A DNA stretch of 32,000 bases, taken from contig NC_008312.1 of NCBI RefSeq assembly GCF_000014265.1, positions 3,180,001 through 3,212,000 of the forward strand, read 5' to 3'. Of the stretch, positions 7,425 to 31,867 are shown one piece after another. The translations under genes and the position numbers were made by a program. The stretch comes from Trichodesmium erythraeum IMS101. Lineage in GTDB: Bacteria; Cyanobacteriota; Cyanobacteriia; Cyanobacteriales; Microcoleaceae. Every line of letters starts with the position of its first letter. The first letter of the stretch is position 1. The notes beneath the pieces were generated by a model, which was not told where the DNA came from, searched no databases, and was given only the letters and a program-made list of their open reading frames with translations.

Positions 7425-9575
7425 ATGCTGGATAATATTTCTGAAATCAAAATGCATCGAGTACGATGGGTAGTTACACTGAGTTGGTGTCTCCTAATTA
7501 TTTCATTATTCTATGATCCACTATCCACTCAGCTTACAGAACCTTCCAATGCAGTAAGCCCATTCAGACTCAATACAGAAAACTGTGTCCTGTTACAAGG
7601 AAAATGTATTGAAGAGACACCCTATGCAATGGGAGCTGCTATTTTTTGGGGCATGGTCGTACCAACTTCAATTTTGATTTTGCTTGTGTTAGGACACGAA
7701 TTTTGGCGACGCATTTGTCCCCTATCCTTTATTTCACAAATTCCTCGTGCTTTGGGATGGGAACGTAAACGCGATCGCATCAGTAAAACAGGTAAGGTAC
7801 GCAAGGAATTGGTCAAAGTTTCCAAAAATTCATGGCTAGCTCAGAATCATCTTTACCTACAATTTGGCCTTTTCTTTGTAGGGCTGTGTAGCCGTATTCT
7901 TTTTGTTAACTCTAATCGTTTTGCTTTAGGTTTGTTTTTAATACTTACCATTATTGCAGCAATAACAGTCGGTTTCCTCTATGGGGGTAAGGCTTGGTGT
8001 CAGTATATTTGTCCGATGGCTCCGGTACAAAAAATTTATGCAGAACCAAGAGGACTTTTTAATAGTACTGCTCACAAGGGCGATCGCAAACGCATTACCC
8101 AATCTATGTGTCGTACAGTAACTCAAGACGGCAAAGAATTGAGTGCTTGTGTTGCCTGTCAAAGCCCTTGTATTGATATAGACGCCGAATCTTCCTATTG
8201 GCATGGTATAAGTAACCCACGGCAGAAATGGCTCTACTATGCCTATGTTGGTCTTGTAGTTGGATATTTTGTTTATTACTATCTTTATGCGGGGAACTGG
8301 GATTATTATTTATCGGGTGCTTGGGCTCATGAAGAAAACCAACTGGCTAATTTGCTTAAACCCGGGTATTATTTGTTAGATAAGCCTTTAGACATTCCTA
8401 AACTCGCAGCAGTACCTATAACTCTGAGTTTATTTACCTTTGGTGCTATAGGCATTGGTGATACTTTAGAAAAGACTTATAAAGCCTATCATCATCGCCA
8501 TCATAGACATACAGACCCCCTAATCATTCGACATCGAATGTTTACTTTGTGTACATTTTTCATTTTTAATTTCTTTTTTGTTTTTGCAGGGCACAATTTT
8601 GTTCACTTGTTGCCATTACCCTTACCCAATCTTTTTTCAGTTTTAATAGCTGTATCCAGTAGCTTGTGGCTCTTCAGAACTTGGCAGCGCACTCCTAGTT
8701 CTTATCACCGAGAAAGTCTTGCCGGTCGGTTGCGAAAACAGCTTAAAAAACTCAATTTGGATAGGGCAAAGTTTTTGGAAGGGCGATCTATTGAGGACCT
8801 TAGTACAAATGAAGTCTATATTATGGCTAAAGTTTGGCCTGATTTTTGCCAAGAGCAACGCCTCAAAACTTACAAAATTATACTGCGAGATACCATTAAT
8901 GAGGGTTATGTAAACCCAGCTAATAGTCTGGAAAGCTTCAAGCATATGCGGCAAGAACTGGGTGCCTCAGATAAAGATCACAATGCTATCTTAACGGAAC
9001 TAGGTCAGCAATATCCTGAGCTTTTCTATTCTCATAAGCTGCGGAATAAAGAAAACACTTCGCGCTTAGAAAGCTATCAAGAAACTCTGCTGGAAATTAT
9101 CTTACTTGCTCAGAAAGCTAACCCAGATAAAACCTGGGTGACTGACTTGATGAAAGTATTTTCTAGGGAAACATCCTTAGAAGTCTTAGAAGACCTTTTG
9201 AAAAGTTTATCTCCAAAAGCTCGTAATTTAGTTCAAGAACTTCGCCAAGAATATAGCATTACTGCAAATGACGAAGCAGATGCTCTTAAAAACACTGACC
9301 CCTATCAGTTGTGGAAGGCGATCGCTGAACGTATTGGTTTGCTAGAATACATTAGTACTGGGGGAGAAAAAGAAGTCCGCAAAATTTTTGAACAAATTGA
9401 TACAGATGCTTCAGGGGATATAAGTTTGTATGAATTAAAAACTTATATCCGTACTATCGATCCCCATGTTACTAATTTTCAAATTGAAAATATGTTGACA
9501 GCAGCAGACACCAATGGAGACTATGTAATTAGTTATGATGAGTTTCAAGAACTCTTTAAATCCTTGAAATATTAG
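7425..9575 (+). CDS. Polytopic membrane protein with NapH/NosR-like Cys motifs and a C-terminal EF-hand pair
   Basis: The 716-aa ORF has several hydrophobic segments and the Cys motifs WRRICPLSF, KAWCQYICPMAP and CVACQSPCIDID. There is a His-rich loop, HHRHHRH. The soluble C-terminus ends in two EF-hand loops, DTDASGDISLYE and DTNGDYVISYDE. Confidence 0.8.
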   Translation: MLDNISEIKMHRVRWVVTLSWCLLIISLFYDPLSTQLTEPSNAVSPFRLNTENCVLLQGKCIEETPYAMGAAIFWGMVVPTSILILLVLGHEFWRRICPLSFISQIPRALGWERKRDRISKTGKVRKELVKVSKNSWLAQNHLYLQFGLFFVGLCSRILFVNSNRFALGLFLILTIIAAITVGFLYGGKAWCQYICPMAPVQKIYAEPRGLFNSTAHKGDRKRITQSMCRTVTQDGKELSACVACQSPCIDIDAESSYWHGISNPRQKWLYYAYVGLVVGYFVYYYLYAGNWDYYLSGAWAHEENQLANLLKPGYYLLDKPLDIPKLAAVPITLSLFTFGAIGIGDTLEKTYKAYHHRHHRHTDPLIIRHRMFTLCTFFIFNFFFVFAGHNFVHLLPLPLPNLFSVLIAVSSSLWLFRTWQRTPSSYHRESLAGRLRKQLKKLNLDRAKFLEGRSIEDLSTNEVYIMAKVWPDFCQEQRLKTYKIILRDTINEGYVNPANSLESFKHMRQELGASDKDHNAILTELGQQYPELFYSHKLRNKENTSRLESYQETLLEIILLAQKANPDKTWVTDLMKVFSRETSLEVLEDLLKSLSPKARNLVQELRQEYSITANDEADALKNTDPYQLWKAIAERIGLLEYISTGGEKEVRKIFEQIDTDASGDISLYELKTYIRTIDPHVTNFQIENMLTAADTNGDYVISYDEFQELFKSLKY

Positions 9576-9947: not shown

Positions 9948-10332
9948 CTGATGATTAGAGGGTATGAACGAGTATTGCCCTGCGTAATAGAACACATTGT
10001 TGGTAAAAACCATTGCCCTGCAATTGGAACGCACAAATGGAATTATCAAACAGTAGCTCGGTCGATGGCATCGCCAACAGAATAAATTTGGCAAGCTCTG
10101 GCAACAAGCTGAGGTAACAGTAAGGTTGGTGAGGGTATACTTTAATGGATTTTGGTTCATAGTTGCAAAGAAAATACTGCTGCTCCAAGAGCTGAGGAAC
10201 GCGATCGCTCCCTGAAGTGGGAACGACTTAATTACTTATCCCACACTTTACTGACAGACTACCAAGAAAACCAGGGAGGATGACTTAAAGGAAATAGGCG
10301 TGAAATTGAGTGCTGATGAAAAGAGGCTCTTA

Positions 10333-12909: not shown

Positions 12910-14634
12910 TTGGCAATTTTAACCCATATAACTACTCTTATGATGAATACAGAAGTTTGGACATTTATTTTTGTGACAATTTCCTTGATGTTGTACCTCT
13001 ACATTGGATGGCGATCGCGAGTCCAAGATAGTAAAGGTTTTTTTGTTGCAGATCAAGGTGTGCCTGCAATTGCTAATGGTGCTGCTACTGCAGCGGACTT
13101 TATGTCGGCAATTTCATTTATTTCTATAGCAGGGGCAGTATCAATTTTAGGTTCTGATGGTTCTTATTATGTAGCAGCAGGAAGTGGAGGTTATGTACTC
13201 TTGGGACTGCTGCTGGCTCCATATCTGCGAAAGTTTGGTAAATATACTTTACCAGATTTTATAGGCGATCGCTACTACTCTAATGTTGCTCGTATTATTG
13301 CAGTTATTGCTGCCCTCATTATATCTATAACTTTTATTGTCGGGCAAATGCGAGGTGTTGGTATTGTCTTCAGTAGATTTTTGCAAGTCCCTATTGAAGT
13401 TGGTGTTGTTATCGGCATGGTTATAGTTGCCTTCTTTGCCATCTTAGGAGGAATGAAGGGCATTACTTGGACTCAGGTTGCTCAATATTTTATACTTATT
13501 GTTGCTTATTTGATACCAGCTATTGCTCTTGCTAATACTCTGACAAATATTCCGGTTCCACAGTTAGCTTTTACCTTTAGTGATATTGCAGAAAAATTGA
13601 ATCAAGTTCAGGTTGACTTGGGTTTTCCGGAATATACTGCTGCTTTCACTCAAAAAACTATGCTAGATGTTCTATTTATAACTATTTCTGGCATGGTTGG
13701 TCTTGCTAGTTTACCCCACGTTATTGTTCGTTTCTATACTGTACCTAATTTGACAGCAGCTAGATATTCTGTAGGTTGGGCGTTGTTGTTTATTGCTGTT
13801 TTTGCTACAACTGTTCCGGCTTTAGCTGTTTCTGCCCGATACAATTTAATTGATACTTTACACAATACAACTATAGAGGAGGTGCAAAATTTAGACTGGG
13901 CAACAAAGTGGGAAAATACGGGTTTGTTAGAATTCAGGGATAAAAATAATGATGGTCGTTTGCAATTAACTCCAGATATGGAGACTAATGAAATCATTAT
14001 TGACCCCGATATTATTACTCTCTCTACTCCAGAAGTGGCTCAACTTCCTCCTTGGGTAATTGCTTTGGTGGCAGCAGGAGGAGTCGCTGCTGCTTTGTCT
14101 ACGGCATCGGGTTTGTTGTTGGTAATTTCTAGTGCTATTGCTCACGATATTTATTACCGTTTAATTAACCCAGAGGCGTCAGAGTCACAAAGGTTAATGT
14201 TGGGGAGAATAATGGTGGTATTGGCGATCGCTATTGCTGGTTATTTCGGCATTAACCCCCCCGGTTTTGTAATTGAGATAGCAACTTTGGGAGTTGGTGT
14301 CGCTGCTGGTACTTTTTTTCCAGCAATTATTTTGGGAATTTTTGATCGGCGCACTAACCGAGAAGGGGCGATCAGTGGTATGATATTTGGTTTGGTGTTT
14401 ACAACTATTTATATCATAGGTACCAGGTTTGCGGGAATGCCAACATGGTTTTTTGGGATATCTGATCAGGGTATCGGTACAGTAGGAATGTTGTTGAATT
14501 TTGTTGTGAGTTTGGTAGTGTCTCGGATGACAAGTCCTCCACCTTTGGAAATACAAAAGATAGTGGAAGATTTACGATCGCCTTTGGCTGCACCTGCTCC
14601 TCTTCAGGATATTGGAGAAGAACAGTTAGATTAA
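12910..14634 (+). CDS. Sodium:solute symporter family protein (cation/acetate symporter ActP-like)
   Basis: The 574-aa polytopic ORF has SSF-type segments: GFFVADQGVPAIANGAATAADFMSAISFISIAG, LPDFIGDRY and GMKGITWTQVAQY. The track start at 12910 is a TTG. ATG codons at 12940/12943 (MMNTEVWTF...) are more likely starts. Confidence 0.9.
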   Translation: MAILTHITTLMMNTEVWTFIFVTISLMLYLYIGWRSRVQDSKGFFVADQGVPAIANGAATAADFMSAISFISIAGAVSILGSDGSYYVAAGSGGYVLLGLLLAPYLRKFGKYTLPDFIGDRYYSNVARIIAVIAALIISITFIVGQMRGVGIVFSRFLQVPIEVGVVIGMVIVAFFAILGGMKGITWTQVAQYFILIVAYLIPAIALANTLTNIPVPQLAFTFSDIAEKLNQVQVDLGFPEYTAAFTQKTMLDVLFITISGMVGLASLPHVIVRFYTVPNLTAARYSVGWALLFIAVFATTVPALAVSARYNLIDTLHNTTIEEVQNLDWATKWENTGLLEFRDKNNDGRLQLTPDMETNEIIIDPDIITLSTPEVAQLPPWVIALVAAGGVAAALSTASGLLLVISSAIAHDIYYRLINPEASESQRLMLGRIMVVLAIAIAGYFGINPPGFVIEIATLGVGVAAGTFFPAIILGIFDRRTNREGAISGMIFGLVFTTIYIIGTRFAGMPTWFFGISDQGIGTVGMLLNFVVSLVVSRMTSPPPLEIQKIVEDLRSPLAAPAPLQDIGEEQLD

Positions 14635-14857: not shown

Positions 14858-15511
14858 ATGAATTTTAAATTCATCAAACAATGGTTGACTATTGGTTGCT
14901 TTAGTTTAGCTGTAATTTCTGGCCTAACTCAGCATACTCAGGCACAACAAAGTCGACGTAGGGCTAGTTTTTTCTGTGGTACTGAAGGGGGTCAACCTGC
15001 TACTATTGCGCGACTGCCAGAGAAGGATGGCAATACTCCTTTAAAAACTTTAATTATTTGGAAAATTGATGACTTTAAAGGGTATCCTCCTGAAAAACGT
15101 TGTCGTCTCGTTTCTCAGAAATTTCAAGATAATCAAAATACGGGTCATTTGAACTATATTGTTTCTGGTCAAGCAAATGGTTGGCCAGTATTATGTGCTT
15201 CTAAACAGAACTATGATTATATTGTAGATTGTCCTGACCCTAATGTTTTGATGACTCTTTTACCGGGGGATGACTCCCAAGACATGATTAGAAAACTGGA
15301 AAAACTAAACAGGGGTCGTTCAAATGCACCCCTGGAACATTTACCAGATGAAGTATTAGTTCGTAGTGGAAATTTAGACTCAATTAATATTAATAAATGG
15401 ATAAATAATTCTCCACTACATGGGAATAACTCCCAAGAAATTATCAGAAAAGTTGAAGAACCAAAGACTGATATTGAAGAATCTAATCAATGTATTTGGG
15501 GATGCGAATAA
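14858..15511 (+). CDS. COP23 (circadian oscillating protein 23) domain protein, secreted
   Basis: There is a signal peptide, MNFKFIKQWLTIGCFSLAVISGLTQHTQA. The COP23-type pattern follows: FFCGTEGGQPATIA...LIIWKIDDFKGYPPEKRCRLVSQKFQ...LNYIVSGQANGWPVLC...CPDPNVLMTL. Confidence 0.8.
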   Translation: MNFKFIKQWLTIGCFSLAVISGLTQHTQAQQSRRRASFFCGTEGGQPATIARLPEKDGNTPLKTLIIWKIDDFKGYPPEKRCRLVSQKFQDNQNTGHLNYIVSGQANGWPVLCASKQNYDYIVDCPDPNVLMTLLPGDDSQDMIRKLEKLNRGRSNAPLEHLPDEVLVRSGNLDSININKWINNSPLHGNNSQEIIRKVEEPKTDIEESNQCIWGCE

Positions 15512-16754: not shown

Positions 16755-18029
16755 ATGAAAAAAGCAATCTTAAAATGTTTCAAGAAAAAAATAATTATAA
16801 AGAAATATATCATCAGACTAACAATTTTACTAACAATATTAACTTTGGTTAGTTGCAATAAAATACCTTTTCTGAACAAACAACCACCACAACCAGAACA
16901 ACCAACTTTTATTGCCAGAAAATCAGGTACTCCTGTAAATCCTTTTGCTTTAAATAGATTAGCAAAAGAAACGGTAGTAGAAATTGTGAGTGAGGGTTAT
17001 TTGACTGGAGGTAATAAATATCTTCCTAAAGGTTCGGGAGTAATTATTGGTAGAAAAGATTCTGTTTATTATGTTCTAACTGCTGATCATATTTCTGATA
17101 TTGACGATGGACTTTCGGTGTTTATTCGCAGTGAAAAACCAGGGAAATTAGGAGAAGTATTACCTCTAAAATTTATTAGGCGTTACCCACGGGAAGATTT
17201 GGCTGTGGTGACGTTTCTTAGTTTTACTAATTATAAGGTGGCGGAGGTTGGAGAGGCGAGTCAGCTAGATGATGATAATCAAGTTTATGTGGCGGGCTGG
17301 CCTGGGGCTGAGAATAGGCAGGGTTTTCAGTTTACTCCTGCTAAGGTGACCAACCCACAAGTGGGAGATAATTTGACTTATCAACCTACTGAACCTAGTG
17401 AGAGTTTGTATAAGGGGATGAGTGGGGGAGCGGTTTTGAATGAGGCGGGGCAGTTGGTGGGTATTCATGTGGGCTTGACGAAGGTTGGTGGAGATGGGAA
17501 GGGGGTTTTGATTTCGACTTTTTTGCAGATGGTGCCACCAGAGGTTGAGGAGGTGTTGGGGAGTTCAACTCCCGATGTCTTGTCTTCTTCGAGTAGTGAC
17601 AATGAGGAAGTTAAATTACGACGACAACTGGAGGAGGAGCGGCGGAAGCGTGAAGAGGCAGAAGGGCTAGTGGAAAAGCTAGAGGCTAAACTTTTCAAAG
17701 AGACAGAAGGGCGAAAACAAGAGGGAGAAAAAAAAATAAAAAATGATAAAAAAAGGTTTTGCCTCTGGGGTTATGTTTGGTGGTCGTGGTTCTTGAAGTT
17801 GGGTGTGTGGGGGCTGTATGTCGCTGTCGTCGTCGTAGCGTTTCGTTGGGTCGTAGGGGTGTTTGAGGGGATTTTGGTCTCCCGGGAGCAGCGTTGGCCT
17901 TGGAGAGGGAGGCTTTGGTGGCTGATAGAGTTTGCTTGCTGGGGGGTGGGAGGAATTTGGGGAATGGTGGGAGGAATTGGCATGATTTTTGTGTGGGATT
18001 GGGCTGATGGGTTGGGGGCGTGTAATTAG
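16755..18029 (+). CDS. Trypsin-like serine peptidase lipoprotein with coiled-coil and Trp-rich hydrophobic C-terminal tail (3' extent uncertain)
   Basis: There is a lipobox-like LTLVSC. The triad contexts are TADHI (His), REDLAVVTF (Asp) and GMSGGAVLNEAGQLVGIHVG (Ser). A charged coiled-coil follows (EEVKLRRQLEEERRKREEAEGLVEKLEAKL), then a 91-aa tail with 14 Trp. That tail lies in A-depleted DNA where stop codons are intrinsically rare. Confidence 0.75.
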   Translation: MKKAILKCFKKKIIIKKYIIRLTILLTILTLVSCNKIPFLNKQPPQPEQPTFIARKSGTPVNPFALNRLAKETVVEIVSEGYLTGGNKYLPKGSGVIIGRKDSVYYVLTADHISDIDDGLSVFIRSEKPGKLGEVLPLKFIRRYPREDLAVVTFLSFTNYKVAEVGEASQLDDDNQVYVAGWPGAENRQGFQFTPAKVTNPQVGDNLTYQPTEPSESLYKGMSGGAVLNEAGQLVGIHVGLTKVGGDGKGVLISTFLQMVPPEVEEVLGSSTPDVLSSSSSDNEEVKLRRQLEEERRKREEAEGLVEKLEAKLFKETEGRKQEGEKKIKNDKKRFCLWGYVWWSWFLKLGVWGLYVAVVVVAFRWVVGVFEGILVSREQRWPWRGRLWWLIEFACWGVGGIWGMVGGIGMIFVWDWADGLGACN

Positions 18030-18121
18030 AAGTCTAACACTAAGTCCTTTCAGCCGTCAAGAAAAAAGTTTGCCAAGTTAATTCGATACCTGGCACCCCG
18101 CCGCAAAAATTCTTAGTATTT

Positions 18122-18273
18122 GTAGGTTGGGTTGAGGTCACGAAACCCAACTTATCCCCCGCTGATGTGTTAGGTTTCACTTCCTTGTTGAGGAGCCTAC
18201 TTTAATATTGCCAAAACCAATCTTTCTTAACCATGCTAATGTGTTTGGTTTCACTTCATTCTACCCAACCTAC
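18122..18273. repeat. Three copies of a hairpin-forming repeat family (GTAGGTTGGGTT...AACCCAAC) in mixed orientation
   Basis: Copy A at 18122-18151 has an 8-bp stem, gttgggtt/aacccaac. Copies B (18166-18200) and C (18240-18273) are in the opposite orientation. B and C share the 23-nt direct repeat GCTRATGTGTTWGGTTTCACTTC (18161-18183 and 18235-18257). Confidence 0.65.
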
Positions 18274-18349: not shown

Positions 18350-19639
18350 ATGACCACAAACCAACTTCTAGACAACCGATACCAAATTATCAACAAATTG
18401 CACGAGACAAATTTAAGCACCACATTCCAGGGAAAAGACATCAAAACTGCCACCCATCGCCCATGTCTCATCAAACAACTCAAAACCGATCCCCAAAACA
18501 CCAAACTACAAAAAGAACAAGAAGAAAGATTTCAACAAGAAGCAAAAATCTTAGAAAAATTAGGCAAACACCCGCAAATACCAGATTCATACGCCTATTT
18601 TTCTGTAAATAATCAATTTTATTTAGTTCAAGAATGGATAGCAGGATGTAACCTAGAAGAAAAACTTCAACAACAGGGCAAACTAACAGAAACAGAGGTC
18701 AAAAATATACTAATAAAATTATTGCCAGTCCTAGAATTTATTCATCACCAACACAAAATAATTCACCGAGATATTAAACCAACTAATATTATGCTGAACT
18801 CCGAAAACTTACCCATATTAATTGACTTCGGCATAGTCAAAAAAATAGTCACTTCAATAAACCCTCAAATCCCAAATACCTTAAAAATAGGAACTCCCGA
18901 CTTTGTCTCTCCCGAACAAATATTAGGAGAACCAACCTTTGCCAGCGATATATATAGTTTAGGCACTACAGCAATTTATCTCTTAACAGGAGAAATACCC
19001 AAAAATAAATATTCCTGGCATTCAAACCTACCAAATATTAGCCCAGAATTTGCCAATATTTTAGATAAATCTATAGAAGAAAAATTGAGCGATCGCTATC
19101 AAAGCGCCAAAGAAATGTTAACGGCAATAAAAAGCAGCAAAACATCTTATTCGAGCTCCAAAACCAAACTGCAAATTACCAAAACCCCATCATCTCTACA
19201 ACCAACTCAAAAAATTTCCCCCGTAACTTTAACAAGCCCAAAAAATAATCAGTGGTTAAAAATCGGAATAGTCGCCATTATCGTAGGAATTATCAGCACA
19301 GGAACATACATTTTTTACAATAACAAAAACCAAACCCAGTCAACCTTATATGCAGCAACTGAAAAAGCAGAAAAAGTAATTACAAAAGCCAAAAAAGCCA
19401 CAGAAAAAAACGAATTAGAAATTGCCAGAAACCAATTAGAAATCGCAATTCAAGAATTAGAAAATATTCCCCAAAACCCAGAAATTAATAATCAAATTCA
19501 AACCAAAAAATCAGAGTATCTAAAAACAATGAACCAAATAAATCTGGCATTAAAAAAACAACCCTGTTATGAACTATTGTGGCAAAAAGATAATTGCCAA
19601 AAATACCCAATTAAATTAGACAATAGTAGTTTTGATTGA
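18350..19639 (+). CDS. Membrane-anchored Hanks-type Ser/Thr protein kinase (glycine-rich loop degenerate)
   Basis: HRDIKPTNIML, DFG and GTPDFVSPEQ are present, with candidate Lys (CLIKQL) and Glu (QQEAKILEKL). A TM segment WLKIGIVAIIVGIISTGTYIFY is followed by about 110 aa of helical C-terminal region. The expected GxGxxG position reads HETNLS. Confidence 0.9.
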   Translation: MTTNQLLDNRYQIINKLHETNLSTTFQGKDIKTATHRPCLIKQLKTDPQNTKLQKEQEERFQQEAKILEKLGKHPQIPDSYAYFSVNNQFYLVQEWIAGCNLEEKLQQQGKLTETEVKNILIKLLPVLEFIHHQHKIIHRDIKPTNIMLNSENLPILIDFGIVKKIVTSINPQIPNTLKIGTPDFVSPEQILGEPTFASDIYSLGTTAIYLLTGEIPKNKYSWHSNLPNISPEFANILDKSIEEKLSDRYQSAKEMLTAIKSSKTSYSSSKTKLQITKTPSSLQPTQKISPVTLTSPKNNQWLKIGIVAIIVGIISTGTYIFYNNKNQTQSTLYAATEKAEKVITKAKKATEKNELEIARNQLEIAIQELENIPQNPEINNQIQTKKSEYLKTMNQINLALKKQPCYELLWQKDNCQKYPIKLDNSSFD

Positions 19640-23344: not shown

Positions 23345-24736
23345 TTGTCAATTGCTAACTGTAAAAACAACAATTTTACTCAGAAAATTAATTTAATCAA
23401 AGTGATTTCAAAAGAAAATAGACTTAACATACAAGAACTAGAAACTATTGTTGGCAAAGACAACATTAATTTATGGGAAAATATAGACCCAACAAAACAA
23501 CAACAGATCTCACAGGCGATCGCTCCCAATAACATTATTAACTGTATCATTTATCCAGAAACTCAAGCACAACTATCTGATGTAGTTGCTTACTGCGCCC
23601 AAAATAACTGTGTCATATTACCTTGTGGTAGTGGTAGTAAACTTCATTGGGGAGGTTTATTAAAAGTAGATCCAACTACTCACCACCAAAAAATAATAGT
23701 AGTCAGTTGTGCTCGCCTCAACCGTCTCATCGAACATGCTGTCGGTGACTTAACCGTTACCGTGGAACCAGGAATAAAATATGCAGAACTACAAGCAACC
23801 CTGGCAAAAGTCGGACAATTTCTAGCTATCGACCCGGCCTACTCAGAAAGTGCAACTCTTGGCGGTATTATTGCCACTGCTGACACTGGTTCCATACGTC
23901 AACGCTACCGGGGTGTACGAGATATGTTACTAGGTATTAGTTTCGTGCGTTCAGATGGAAAAATTGCCAAAGGAGGAGGACGAGTAGTTAAAAACGTTGC
24001 AGGCTACGACCTAATGAAATTATTTACAGGTTCTTATGGCACATTAGGTATTATTAGTCAACTTACTTTCAGAGTTTATCCCATACAAGAAGCATCTGGA
24101 ACTGTTGTTTTAGTAGGAGAAAAAAATAACATTGCTAAAGCAACTCAAACTTTATTATCTTCTGCATTAACACCTGTTGCTGTTGACTTACTTTCAATGA
24201 ATTTAGTTCAAGAATTAGACTTAGGCAAAGGGGTGGGATTAATAGTAAGATTTCAAACTGTAATAGATAGTGTGAAAGAGCAATCAAAGAAATTATTAGA
24301 AGTAGGAAATAGTTTAGAATTAAACTCCACTTATTATCACGATGACGAAGCAGAATTATGGAATAAATTAAAACAGAAAATTTGCCATGTTCACGGAAAT
24401 ACAAAAATCACTTGTAAAATAGGAGTAATACCTAACAGAGCCGTAGAAACTTTAAGTAAACCAGCTCTAGAAAAAAATTTGGGATTAATTCATGGAGGAA
24501 GTGGTTTAGGAAAATTAAGCTTTAATTCTATTACCCCTGAAACTCTTCTAGAATTAAGGCAATGGTGTGAATCTCAAGGTGGATTTCTGACAGTTTTAGC
24601 AGCACCATTAGAGATAAAACAAAAACTTGACGTTTGGGGTTATAATCAAAATGCTCTTGATATGATGCGTCGAATTAAACAAAAATTTGACCCCAAAAAT
24701 ATTCTTAATCCCCATTCTTTTGTTGGTGGAATTTAA
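23345..24736 (+). CDS. glcE: Glycolate oxidase/dehydrogenase FAD-binding subunit GlcE-like
   Basis: The FAD-binding PCMH-type pattern is PCGSGSKLHWGG, VEPGIKYAELQ, GGIIATADTGS, RYRGVRDMLLGISFVRSDG, VKNVAGYDLMKLFTGSYGTLG and a C-terminal KQKFDPKNILNP. The track start is a TTG and no ATG occurs in the first about 190 codons, so the true start is uncertain. Confidence 0.8.
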   Translation: MSIANCKNNNFTQKINLIKVISKENRLNIQELETIVGKDNINLWENIDPTKQQQISQAIAPNNIINCIIYPETQAQLSDVVAYCAQNNCVILPCGSGSKLHWGGLLKVDPTTHHQKIIVVSCARLNRLIEHAVGDLTVTVEPGIKYAELQATLAKVGQFLAIDPAYSESATLGGIIATADTGSIRQRYRGVRDMLLGISFVRSDGKIAKGGGRVVKNVAGYDLMKLFTGSYGTLGIISQLTFRVYPIQEASGTVVLVGEKNNIAKATQTLLSSALTPVAVDLLSMNLVQELDLGKGVGLIVRFQTVIDSVKEQSKKLLEVGNSLELNSTYYHDDEAELWNKLKQKICHVHGNTKITCKIGVIPNRAVETLSKPALEKNLGLIHGGSGLGKLSFNSITPETLLELRQWCESQGGFLTVLAAPLEIKQKLDVWGYNQNALDMMRRIKQKFDPKNILNPHSFVGGI

Positions 24737-29479: not shown

Positions 29480-30550
29480 ATGAAGCGCTCTCTATTTTTA
29501 TTTATAAGTTTAGCTGTTTTAAGTTTAACATCCTGTAGCGCTGCCAAGGAAGTTCAGGAATTAATTCAGGAATTAATTGATCCCACGCCACCACAGACAT
29601 CGACCACATCTCCTGTTAAACAAAAAGAACAAAGAAAGTTATTTCCAATTCAGCAAAAAGGAAAATATGGTTATATCAATAAAATGGGCAAAATATTGAT
29701 TCCACCAAAATTTGAACAGGTGAAAAATTTCTCAGAGGGATTAGCAGCAGTAAAAATTGGAGAAAAATGGGGTTATATTAATGAAATGGGAAAAATAGTC
29801 ATCAGCCCAAAATTTGATTCTGCTTTACGTTTTTCCCAAGGGTTAGCACCAGTGAAAAAAGTTGCTCAAAGATGGAGCTATATTAACCAGAATGGAGAAA
29901 TAGTAATTCAACCAGAGTTTGAAGATGCAGTCTATTTTTCCGAAGGGTTAGCACGAGTTACAATTGATGGTAACTGGGGTTATGTTGATAGAATGGGCAA
30001 AATAGTAATCAAATCAAAATATGGAGGACAAACTGGGCGGGGTTTTTTTGTTGAGGGATTAGCTGCTGTGAGGGTCGGGGCTGGCTATAAATATGGATAT
30101 ATAGATCAGGCTGGAGAAATGGTCATTACAGAACAATATAATTTTGCTGGAGACTTTGTTAATGGTTTAGCGAGGGTTCAAATTTTTGATGTTTGGGGGT
30201 ATATTGATAAAACTGGTAGAGAAGTCATTAGACCAAACTTTGAATTTAGTCAAGATTTTTCTGAGGGTTTAGCAGCAGTTAAAATTAAAGATAAGTATGG
30301 CTATATTGATGTTTCCGGAAAAAGAGTTATTCAACCGAAGTATGATTATGCTGGCAGTTTTTCTGAAGGTCTAGCAGAAGTAAGGATAGATGACAAATAT
30401 GGCTACATTAATGCTAAGAATGAGATCATTATTGAGCCGGAGTTTGATAATGCTTTTGCTTTTTCTAATGGTATTGCAGAAGTGTGGGTAGATGACAAAA
30501 AGGGTTACATAGATAAAATTGGTAGGTTTGTCTGGAATTTAAGTAATTGA
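29480..30550 (+). CDS. WG-repeat (KWG-type) lipoprotein
   Basis: There is a lipoprotein signal, LAVLSLTSC. Nine repeats of the pattern (K/W)(W/Y)GYI(N/D)xxGxxVIxPxFDxAxxFSEGLAxV follow. Confidence 0.9.
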   Translation: MKRSLFLFISLAVLSLTSCSAAKEVQELIQELIDPTPPQTSTTSPVKQKEQRKLFPIQQKGKYGYINKMGKILIPPKFEQVKNFSEGLAAVKIGEKWGYINEMGKIVISPKFDSALRFSQGLAPVKKVAQRWSYINQNGEIVIQPEFEDAVYFSEGLARVTIDGNWGYVDRMGKIVIKSKYGGQTGRGFFVEGLAAVRVGAGYKYGYIDQAGEMVITEQYNFAGDFVNGLARVQIFDVWGYIDKTGREVIRPNFEFSQDFSEGLAAVKIKDKYGYIDVSGKRVIQPKYDYAGSFSEGLAEVRIDDKYGYINAKNEIIIEPEFDNAFAFSNGIAEVWVDDKKGYIDKIGRFVWNLSN

Positions 30551-30576
30551 TAGCGCTTATATAGCAACTATCATAC

Positions 30577-30770
30577 TGGAGGGTACAAAGTTGTATCTGG
30601 CGCGAGAGTAGGGATCAGGTAGGGATGTGGCAAGTGCTAGCACAAGTCAGAATTCAGCAGTCAGAAGTAATATCTGAGTGCATTTGAGCATTTAGCTATG
30701 TGCGCCCCTAATATTCCACAACTATACAACATCCCTACTCCTGCTCAATAGCCCGCGCTGAATTTTTTTT
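30577..30770 (+). other. Long imperfect hairpin ending in a T8 tract (terminator, MITE or small RNA)
   Basis: A perfect 10-bp pairing joins gtagggatgt (30619-30628) and acatccctac (30729-30738). A GC clamp pairs gcgcg (30600-30604) with cgcgc (30754-30758). A T8 run lies at 30763-30770. The GTAGGGA motif recurs at 19869 and near 600. Confidence 0.4.
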
Positions 30771-30892
30771 GATAAATACTATATGCTTCCTACTTTTTGC
30801 CTTTTACTGTCTAACTTTTGGGAGTTTTTAACGATCATAATAGCTAATGCTATGATTAAATTATATTTTCCATCTTAATAAGAAGCAAAATT

Positions 30893-31867
30893 ATGTCCCA
30901 GACTTTCAACCAAGGATACGCTGTTGTTATCGGAGTAGGTGATGATTTGCCGATCACAATTGATGATGCTACTGCCATTGCCAATGTATTGGGTGATTTA
31001 TCTCGTTGCGCCTATCCTACTGATCAAGTGCGTTTACTAACAGGTGAAAAAGCAAACCGTGCCAATGTTCTATCTGCTTTGAGCTGGCTGGCTGAGACCA
31101 CGGGAAAAGATGACACGGCGATCGTTTATTTTTCTGGTCATGGAATTGAAAAACCAGATTATTATTTGATGCCTTATGGTTATAATTTAGAAAATTTGGA
31201 GGGTACAGCTATTCGAGGCGAAACTTTTACGGAGTGTCTGAGAGCTATTAAAACTAAAAAATTACTGGTACTGTTAGACTGCTGCCATGCTGGTGGACAG
31301 GCAGACCCTAAGGGAATTATAAAATCACCTCTACCTCCATCGGCGATCGCTCAGTTGGGGAGCAGTAGTGGTAGGGTTATACTTGCTTCTTCGCGAAAAG
31401 ATGAACTATCTTGGACGGGAAAGCCATACAGTGTTTTTACTGTAGCATTGTTGGAGGCTTTGGCTGGTTATGGCATATTTGAACAAGACGGCTATGCTCG
31501 CGTTTTGGATCTTGCTATGTGGGTCGGACGCAAAGTCCCAGAACGTACAGGGGATGAACAGCACCCTATCATCAAGGTCTCTAATTTAGAGGATAATTTT
31601 GCTTTGGCTTGGTATGCTGGGGGGGAGAAAAGTGTGCGCCCATTGCCAAAATGGGAAACTAATATTCCATCTATTACACCAGGGTTGGATATTGAACAGG
31701 TGGCTACCTGGCGACGGATGTTGGCTAACTATCGTGAAAATCTTCTGTTAATTGAAGAACGCATGAGTGAATTTGTTGAATTTACTGATGTTCCACTAAC
31801 ACTTTTGAAAAATAAACGTCGGATAGAGGCGGAAATAACTAAGTTGGAAAAAAAATTGGGGGGTTAA
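30893..31867 (+). CDS. Caspase-like (peptidase C14, orthocaspase-type) protein with C-terminal helical extension
   Basis: The p20-like core is YAVVIGVG...IVYFSGHG (catalytic His context) and LLVLLDCCHAGG (catalytic Cys context). The last about 75 aa (QVATWRRMLANYRENLLLIEERMSEF...RRIEAEITKLEKKL) look helical or coiled. Confidence 0.85.
   Translation: MSQTFNQGYAVVIGVGDDLPITIDDATAIANVLGDLSRCAYPTDQVRLLTGEKANRANVLSALSWLAETTGKDDTAIVYFSGHGIEKPDYYLMPYGYNLENLEGTAIRGETFTECLRAIKTKKLLVLLDCCHAGGQADPKGIIKSPLPPSAIAQLGSSSGRVILASSRKDELSWTGKPYSVFTVALLEALAGYGIFEQDGYARVLDLAMWVGRKVPERTGDEQHPIIKVSNLEDNFALAWYAGGEKSVRPLPKWETNIPSITPGLDIEQVATWRRMLANYRENLLLIEERMSEFVEFTDVPLTLLKNKRRIEAEITKLEKKLGG

Follow-up and report, generated by a model that had tools for sequence, protein, structure and literature searches.

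Why does a cyanobacterial protease gene change its codon usage abruptly within its catalytic domain, and then run to its stop codon in DNA so poor in adenine that its product ends in a tail rich in tryptophan, glycine and valine? The gene is Tery_2050 of Trichodesmium erythraeum IMS101, and it lies in a stretch of 32,000 nucleotides (contig NC_008312.1 of assembly GCF_000014265.1, forward-strand positions 3,180,001 to 3,212,000), hereafter the window, in whose coordinates all positions are given. The product of the open reading frame (ORF) at 16755-18029 exactly matches ABG51291.1, and a protein identical to it is encoded by 20 contigs from several samples. The explanation that we favor, and to which we lend about as much belief as doubt, joins an inherited block of G-ending codons to a nearly unconstrained hairpin tail written in G/T codons. 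The observation itself exceeds local codon usage: it concerns a polymorphic, low-complexity 3' gene end with an unusual stop-free codon alphabet.

The base composition agrees with the initial annotation of this DNA, which had been made from its letters alone: the hand counts given there for 17821-17880 (A4 C9 G24 T23) and 17941-18000 (A11 C1 G30 T18) are exact, as are the 14 tryptophans among the last 91 codons, which also encode 15 glycines and 14 valines. The synonymous switch placed there at about 17.19-17.23 kb is likewise recovered by a change-point scan, whose best single change point falls at codon 139-150 (nt 17172-17205), with A and G at third positions numbering 64 and 16 before it and 13 and 55 after it (Fisher p = 6e-14 to 6e-15). 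Since this change point coincides with the EDLAVV motif (17193-17210), the switch sets in precisely at the motif of the catalytic Asp. Adenine makes up 43% of third positions in codons 1-150 but 10% in the block at 17205-17579, and guanine goes up from 11% to 44%, with T (~40%) and C (~5%) unchanged, such that third positions of the block comprise A10 C5 G44 T41 %. The shift is seen both at four-fold sites (A9 C5 G25 T22 in the block against A24 C2 G8 T26 upstream) and at purine two-fold sites, where the A:G ratio is 4:26 in the block against 32:6 upstream; in the other genes of the window this ratio lies between about 1:1 and 12:1, mostly from 2:1 to 6:1. Beyond the block the tail has an A:G ratio of 0:9 at purine two-fold sites.

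The region as a whole has 49.6% G+C and a GC skew of +0.51, as against 35.7% and +0.01 for the window; the skew is +0.45 in the block and +0.62 in the segment at 17829-17996 (A13 C11 G45 T31 %), which is the hypervariable core described below. The keto skew over 200 nt peaks at +0.54, whereas outside 17-20 kb it averages 0.003 +/- 0.118 with a range of -0.29 to +0.31. A regular-expression scan identified GGGATTGGGCTGATGGGTTGGGGG as the sole canonical G-quadruplex (G4) motif on the + strand of the window, and 37 starts of two-tetrad motifs fall in the kilobase 17-18 against at most five in every other kilobase. A structured RNA or a known RNA family was considered and rejected, as folding of the block and tail is unexceptional relative to shuffled sequences (z = -0.74 and +1.19) and a search of Rfam matched no family. 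The expectation that the tail would consist mostly of residues whose codons can be written with G and T alone is borne out in so far as 64 of its 91 codons lack A, but only 39 are pure G/T.

Based on the conservation of both domain and catalytic residues, we identify Tery_2050 as a predicted S1/Trypsin_2 (HtrA-like) protease: PF13365 (Trypsin_2) covers residues 93-237 with 62.8 bits against a curated Pfam cut-off of 27.6, and alignment of its motifs with 9zqg_A, a solved DegP-type protease, indicates that the His-Asp-Ser triad is intact, the serine lying in GMSGGAVLNEAGQLVGI, encoded at 17415-17465. The cysteine of a possible N-terminal lipobox is replaced by tyrosine in several alleles (P0003, P0009 and P0011), so that any lipoprotein status would not be conserved. 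In relatives from Trichodesmium and Okeania the same protease domain is fused to TPR, FGE-sulfatase (PF03781), GUN4, WD40, PPC or COP23 domains, and pairings of a trypsin-like effector with sensor domains have been considered as conflict systems in multicellular bacteria (PMC10907252).

These relatives bear directly on the age of the G-ending block. A contig from Okeania (L007) is syntenic over the SSF transporter, COP23, protease and kinase genes at 80-87% nucleotide identity, and its protease has TPR repeats in place of the coiled coil and tail of Tery_2050; the paralogs compared along with it have TPR (L014) or a PPC domain (L015 and L016). In all four, third-position G goes up and A goes down from the same codon, in the Asp motif, and normal usage resumes at the end of the protease domain (PEVEEVL), whatever domain comes next. 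As their third-base patterns agree site by site, including the few positions that keep A, the block must be old and family-wide. A foreign origin or recent mosaic of the block is thus rejected, given that the pattern is common to Okeania and the paralogs and that third-position C is not raised. Synonymous divergence (dS) is 0.04-0.15 for comparisons between Trichodesmium alleles, whichever half of the gene is taken, and 0.25 to Okeania, and within the block it is 0.5-0.6 to L015 and L016. As these values are ordinary, the block is neither frozen at its synonymous sites nor recently converted, and both of these candidates were discarded. The suggestion of a mosaic or recombinant 3' half therefore survives as a mosaic at the level of the population, which is taken up below, and not as a recent recombinant, in light of the pattern common to Okeania and the paralogs across a dS of 0.25-0.6.

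The direction of change within Trichodesmium was read by polarizing synonymous third-site changes with L007 and L014 as outgroups. In the block, which has 32 G sites and only three A sites, nine G>A and no A>G changes are seen, along with three T>G and three T>C; eight of the nine G>A polymorphisms are at a frequency of at most 4/12. In the 5' half G>A was counted at 3 of 8 sites and A>G at 1 of 25. There is thus no sign of present A>G pressure, the polarized changes running in the opposite direction, and the G-ending state reflects either selection on synonymous sites or a slowly decaying relic.

It is against this background that we assess a strand-specific A>G and C>T mutation pressure acting regionally, on the + strand over about 17.2-18.03 kb and on the - strand across the neighboring Ser/Thr kinase gene. 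Its source has been envisaged as deamination of an exposed non-template strand, R-loops or resection from an intergenic break, with selection filtering the outcome in the protease domain and not in the tail. Several features accord with such a pressure. The signature is limited to A>G at two-fold and four-fold sites, C being already minimal (C:T 1:27); the coding strand of the kinase gene is skewed in mirror image (four-fold sites A66 C49 G6 T17); the GC skew is continuous over 17205-18029, coiled coil included; and skews that push proteins towards residues with G/T codons are known from mitochondria (PMC2779903). Similar to those replicons, the G+T-rich coding strand here is enriched for GT-codon residues, just as the C+A-rich coding strand of the kinase gene corresponds to those enriched for Thr, Pro, Gln, Asn and Lys; in animal mitochondria, however, replication skews the whole replicon, whereas here the units are gene modules of 0.3-1.3 kb whose limits are domain limits. 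Furthermore, the bias sets in at a protein motif, within a single block of 25 codons, and does not extend past the stop codon, the GC skew of the intergenic DNA next to it is -0.26, the DNA beyond the protease domain is normal in the paralogs and Okeania, and the codon usage of the downstream S9 peptidase gene is ordinary, with no convergent gradient. Together with the polarized changes this makes a regional pressure quite unlikely, and the present-day strand pressure that the initial annotation had put forward is not what we find. A gradient due to convergent transcription or break resection, centred on 18.03-18.35 kb, had been considered because the kinase gene carries the mirror skew; it too was rejected, as the S9 peptidase gene is ordinary and the limits of the block follow domains in the paralogs.

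The tail behaves in an altogether different manner. We compared eleven syntenic alleles and one paralog at the DNA level (L008-L013, L017, L018 and L021-L023), sorted into types A, B (L011, L012 and L021-L023), C (L013), D (L017) and E, the last being the paralog (L018-L020). Over most of the locus L008-L010 differ from the window at 0-4 positions per 60 nt, with only 0-2 in the 60-nt bins of the flank at 17643-17822; over 17823-18002 there are 31-50 differences per 60 nt. The first part of the first tail helix (17757-17828) is identical across the four type A alleles, and identity is near-complete again from 17997 on. Types A-D are unalignable from about 17730 to the last 2-3 codons, although the flanks of the tail are 93-100% identical and even the type D allele is located at the same locus as the others. 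Tail nucleotide identity between types is 0.51-0.64, against 0.50-0.65 for shuffled sequences, while within type A it is 0.65-0.81 against 0.53-0.64. Type A tails range from 234 to 324 nt, and allele alignments show variation at all bases, without restriction to adenine sites. Tails of types A-C share their composition nonetheless, with 8-16% A, 75-83% G+T and 43-64% pure G/T codons. Unrelated tails that are equally G/T-rich, together with the absence of A at two-fold sites, uphold the view that nucleotide composition drives protein composition.

Directly 3' of the stop codon, nearly all Tery_2050 alleles checked carry AACAYTAAGTCYTYTCAGCCGT, L013 being off by one base, and the same motif lies 29 nt past the stop codon in the type E paralog, which is at another position; a 27-nt post-stop pattern had no match in the metagenome contigs scanned. 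The tail alone has no homolog among 1.84 billion representative proteins, no match in a word-indexed protein set and no Pfam domain. A scan of genome contigs returned the Okeania locus only, the source genome itself not being among the matches, and a second metagenome scan returned three paralog loci. Orthologs do not conserve the Trp-rich tail, and in the 32 kb the skew is matched only by the mirror-skewed kinase gene. In some Trichodesmium populations (L018-L020, from JGI metagenomes) the extra protease of type E, 534 aa in length, is encoded upstream of COP23, with a coiled coil and a G/T-rich hydrophobic tail that are both longer; in the tail, of 447 nt, about four hydrophobic stretches can be discerned by eye.

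Could this tail be no more than read-through into A-poor DNA, or an artefact of assembly? In favor of such a reading, A-poor DNA is poor in stop codons, and composition-matched shuffled sequences remain open in frame in 2.4% of trials for the window's own tail and with P between 0 and 0.09 for each of the alleles. However, the annotated frame alone is stop-free in 12 of 12 independent alleles, the other sense frames having 3-11 stops, and this removes the doubt that had been cast on the ORF. The related claim that A-depleted DNA stays open in several frames applies to the antisense strand, with 0, 1 and 0 stops in the window's tail, but not to its other sense frames, with 6 and 3. Tail lengths are multiples of three throughout, and no indel disrupts the frame. 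A layout of two hydrophobic stretches with a short charged loop between them is kept in nine of nine alleles examined by hydropathy, and those alleles of types A-C whose last residues are CN, CF or CKGV have a cysteine 2-3 residues from the end; L011, type D (L017) and the type E paralog (L018) lack it. With the window's allele present in identical form on 20 contigs as well, read-through or artefact is already contradicted by the allele series and scarcely conceivable.

An AlphaFold2 model places helices at residues 285-377 and 384-419 with a break at 378-383, at a predicted local distance difference test score (pLDDT) of 55-75 in the tail, and renders the coiled coil as a helix at low confidence. 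Consistent with the genuine membrane anchor that the initial annotation had listed among its possibilities, the tail, on the evidence of frame, layout and hydropathy, is a real translated segment predicted to form a two-helix, membrane-anchor-like hairpin, whose membrane topology the model can only suggest. Just before the hairpin, the coding sequence contains A-runs of nine, six and seven (17728-17736, 17738-17743 and 17748-17754). Two metagenomic variants (P0010 and P0139) have a frameshift upstream of these runs, near codons F-K-E (~17695-17705), and stop at the TGA at 17745-17747 between them, giving a protease without membrane tail; this truncation could be either slippage-based switching or sequencing error.

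Several kinds of change are seen in the tails. L009 and L021 contain perfect in-frame internal duplications, spaced 48, 24 and 15 nt apart, the coiled-coil modules are duplicated too and vary in number among alleles, and type B alleles, where they can be aligned by codon, differ by clustered multi-base replacements and compensated small indels; Tandem Repeats Finder reported one weak array only. In-frame duplications, indels and clustered multi-base changes therefore all occur here. The same tail is found on different signal-peptide/protease haplotypes (P0002 and P0116; P0005 and P0118; P0008, P0122 and P0124 with P0126), and the tail is the sole difference between P0015 and P0137. The alleles are accordingly discrete and stable, and they pass from one background to another by homologous recombination within the conserved flanks. 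As Okeania lacks the tail, all tails have diverged within a dS of at most 0.25, yet their similarity is wholly lost, and turnover of the tail is thus far faster than that of neighboring synonymous sites; its rate would exceed the synonymous one several-fold, up to an order of magnitude.

This distribution invites the proposal of a long-lived balanced polymorphism, in which the hairpin determines specificity, its diversity is maintained by frequency-dependent selection and the flanks are homogenized by recombination, perhaps in the context of partner choice, self-recognition between filaments or escape from phages or toxins. It fits alleles that are discrete, stable and common to oceans and samples, rampant recombination in the flanks, and the presence of several alleles together in related samples. 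Likewise, the protease family is among the effector and sensor-domain proteins discussed as conflict systems (PMC10907252), and the neighboring kinase matches PD-T4-6 defence models at 5e-82. Nevertheless, age alone does not account for the loss of similarity, as the tail is younger than the split of Trichodesmium and Okeania (dS 0.25). Moreover, a buried membrane hairpin is an odd target for diversifying selection, the hairpin is without known partner or function, and PADLOC matches to the protease are at the level of the domain only. We hence regard this proposal, roles included, as fairly unlikely, though it can coexist with the explanation that we favor.

An alternative is targeted diversification, where the G-rich strand and G4 would drive segmental conversion from donor cassettes, as in vlsE or pilE, or where rewriting by a reverse transcriptase would remove adenine. 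The boundaries are indeed sharp, with conservation on both sides that includes the 22-nt motif common to the type E paralog, the changes are clustered and multi-base, and at the 3' margin of the core, where the G-runs cluster, lies the sole + strand G4 of the 32 kb. The G+C content and skew of the region are close to those of the vls cassettes of Borrelia B31, which have 49.9% G+C and a GC skew of 0.55 in a genome of ~28.6%, and whose G-runs have been proposed to adopt G4 structures and to stimulate gene conversion (PMC11499132). In our analysis these cassettes appear to be the closest numerical resemblance among the systems considered. With vlsE/vls and Neisseria pilE (PMC11499132) the locus shares its setting in an AT-rich genome, ~50% G+C, a GC skew near +0.5 on the coding strand, clusters of G-runs and a hypervariable stretch of coding sequence with conserved ends. 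Unlike in those systems, each allele is stable from sample to sample, the 15 kb on either side yielded no silent cassette, and the variable segments cannot be aligned where theirs are ~90% identical to donors. Indeed, no second copy of either flank or of the core and no donor-like repeat was found in the 32 kb.

The other candidate engine is a diversity-generating retroelement (DGR). That of T. erythraeum has 12 targets, acts in trans and rewrites the C-termini of FGE-sulfatase domains, and in IMS101 a stop codon interrupts its gene for the reverse transcriptase (PMC4143802). Paralogs of the protease bear this DGR-diversified FGE-sulfatase domain (PF03781). As in DGR variable regions, the hypervariable stretch is at the very 3' end of its gene with conserved sequence immediately beyond, and adenine is the special base. 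In contrast to them, Tery_2050 has no template repeat or reverse transcriptase nearby, its alleles vary in length and at all bases, adenine is depleted in place of being variable, and the tail is a membrane hairpin and not a C-type lectin fold. No reverse transcriptase domain was detected with Pfam in the 14 larger ORFs of the window or in the genes called on L001, the contig covering the rest of its centre. On these several grounds a DGR was rejected as the cause. Given that the same tail recurs in many independent samples and on different haplotypes, frequent switching is unlikely, and the tail has no homolog in the protein set named above. In light of the absence of donor cassettes from the window and the stability of alleles across samples, we rate an active mechanism of either kind as very unlikely. 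The same low standing extends to the reading of the G-rich, adenine-free strand as an adaptation. There a cyanobacterial non-DGR system would rewrite a G4- and R-loop-prone 3' end by gene conversion or error-prone synthesis in a stop-free G/T alphabet, an improbable arrangement in our view. In such a system, with its alphabet securing an open hydrophobic hairpin for any sequence, each strain would carry an individual tail on a conflict-type protease.

Two further comparisons help to place the locus. With the contact-dependent inhibition (CDI) and Rhs toxins it shares a conserved N-terminal part and abrupt, non-homologous C-terminal ends recombined between strains, but it has neither toxin domain nor co-varying immunity gene, the DNA past its stop codon is conserved in all alleles, and what varies is limited to 70-110 residues of hydrophobic, low-complexity sequence. 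With low-complexity regions shaped by slippage and duplication, and with contingency loci, it shares biased composition, short in-frame duplications and length polymorphism; unlike these, the tail is not a simple tandem repeat, and similarity is fully lost while layout and frame are kept.

Based on the above, we posit that Tery_2050 is a trypsin-like protease probably anchored to the membrane via a C-terminal helical hairpin, and that its A-poor 3' part would represent two separate phenomena, which have in common a coding strand rich in G and poor in C between 17205 and the stop codon. The block would be an inherited pattern, bounded by the Asp motif and the domain end in every family member from Trichodesmium and Okeania; as such it would be an old trait of the module, held by selection on synonymous sites or by slow decay, and not the product of a mutation pressure now acting locally. 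The coiled coil and hairpin of Trichodesmium would have taken the place of an ancestral TPR domain, which Okeania retains. The hairpin is built largely from the eight codons that use G and T only, for Gly, Val, Trp, Cys, Leu and Phe. This set is closed, such that exchange of G and T yields a small or hydrophobic residue, never a charged one and never a stop; the tail could therefore be translated and kept in frame with its sequence almost unconstrained. We infer that duplications, indels and clustered changes suffice for the rate at which it changes, as we do the reason for the avoidance of adenine and a role of the variable hairpin in specificity.

Six points weigh against this explanation. 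The low frequency of the G>A changes fits selection for G, but also a recent origin of the polymorphisms. The type D tails are hypervariable despite a much weaker G/T bias, and hence the bias is not required for variability. The AlphaFold2 model, computed from a 16-sequence alignment, is of low confidence (mean pLDDT 45) and represents the protease domain poorly (pLDDT 45). Donor copies were sought in 32 kb of the source genome only. It is by inference that slippage, duplication and point change would suffice within a dS of at most 0.25, and the G/T alphabet fits the composition of the protein but not the avoidance of A at synonymous sites or the high rate of change. The coordinates of all features are collected in Table 1.

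Table 1. Features of the Tery_2050 locus in window coordinates
Feature	Position	Strand	Basis or remark
Tery_2050, S1/Trypsin_2 serine protease, ORF of 424 aa	16755..18029	+	
Possible lipobox LVSC, end of N-terminal signal/anchor	16845..16856 (residues 31-34)	+	read from sequence
Catalytic His motif TADH	17079..17090	+	aligns with TNSH of 9zqg_A
Catalytic Asp motif EDLAVV; start of codon-usage switch	17193..17210	+	aligns with KDIALI of 9zqg_A
Catalytic Ser motif GMSGG	17415-17429	+	aligns with GNSGG of 9zqg_A
Block of G-ending codons, second half of protease domain up to PEVEEVL	17205..17579	+	third-position composition
Ser-rich linker and K/E-rich coiled coil	17580..17759	+	A 42%, GC skew still +0.46
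First hydrophobic helix of tail	17757..17864	+	hydropathy; AlphaFold2 helix 285-377
Polar charged loop EGILVSREQRWPWRGR	17865..17912	+	hydropathy; AlphaFold2 break at residues 378-383
Second hydrophobic helix, Gly/Trp-rich	17913..17996	+	hydropathy; AlphaFold2 helix 384-419
Hypervariable core of type A alleles, 168 nt, codons 359-414	17829..17996	+	alignment, divergence bins
No detectable similarity among allele types A, B, C and D	17730..18020	+	seven-allele alignment
Canonical G4 motif GGGATTGGGCTGATGGGTTGGGGG	17995..18018	+	regular-expression scan; within conserved 3' flank of core
22-nt motif AACAYTAAGTCYTYTCAGCCGT just past stop codon	18036..18057	+	exact in 18/23 loci
Four antisense ORFs, 57-77 aa	17265-17468, 17395-17568, 17465-17698, 17771-17983	-	ORF listing

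The antisense ORFs, of which the initial annotation had counted three and we find four, are by-products and not genes; stops are rare on that strand because it is poor in T, and the translations are rich in Pro, Thr and Gln, mirroring its C+A composition. A consensus scan found no terminator 3' of Tery_2050. The gene is preceded by genes for an SSF transporter, COP23 and a second trypsin-like protease and followed by those for the Ser/Thr kinase and the S9 peptidase.

The kinase gene (18350-19639, +) has a mirror-image skew on its coding strand, which resembles the antisense strand of a typical gene of the window: its overall composition is A45 C22 G12 T22, its third positions A49 C23 G6 T21, and its keto skew goes down to -0.50. 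Its product is the one matching the phage-defence kinase models cited above, and the Okeania ortholog (L007 13084-14341) is skewed likewise. The Okeania contig also has a STAND/NB-ARC-like gene (1002-2375) with a strongly C+A-rich coding strand and a keto skew of -0.45, and skewed signaling or conflict genes may form a class in the genomes of Trichodesmium and Okeania. At 29480-31867 a WG-repeat protein, with eight PF14903 repeats that show in the DNA as repeats of 102 nt, is followed by a metacaspase (Peptidase_C14), and these are further genes of cell-death or conflict type in the 32 kb.

Repeats of several kinds lie between and within these genes. Between Tery_2050 and the kinase gene, 18122-18273 is an element of ~150 bp with inverted repeats GTAGGTTGGGT and ACCCAACCTAC and an internal direct repeat (18161-18186/18235-18260), which looks like a miniature inverted-repeat transposable element; 42 nt at 18113-18154 are 93% identical to L007 11737-11778, and the folding z-score of the element is only -1.25. 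The 3' end of COP23 (15423-15482), which stands out in the divergence profile, was considered as a second variable spot and rejected, since it amounts to a single 48-bp in-frame duplication in the window, at ~15410-15460, which is absent from L008, L009 and Okeania. Between COP23 and the first protease gene there is a tandem direct repeat of 123 nt (15509-15631/15636-15758; 86% identical). Short repeats ending in GGCGATCGCT (9303-9326, 10186-10209, 13250-13273 and 23501-23524) contain the GCGATCGC palindrome (HIP1), which is typical of cyanobacterial genomes.

Trichodesmium contributes in a major way to nitrogen fixation in the sea; its colonies act as multicellular entities, and its genome contains many genes for proteases, kinases and caspases to which roles in cell death and conflict have been ascribed. 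In this context a strain-specific protease tail amid near-identical neighbors is a marker of strain individuality and a candidate specificity determinant. A codon set of G and T alone, which keeps a segment open and hydrophobic under mutation, bears on the origins of membrane segments and on library design, and the family-wide block of G-ending codons from the catalytic Asp onward is a clean case for tests of selection on synonymous sites. If it is true that the G-rich strand drives the variation, as has been proposed for the vls locus of Borrelia, this would be a new type of targeted diversification outside pathogens.

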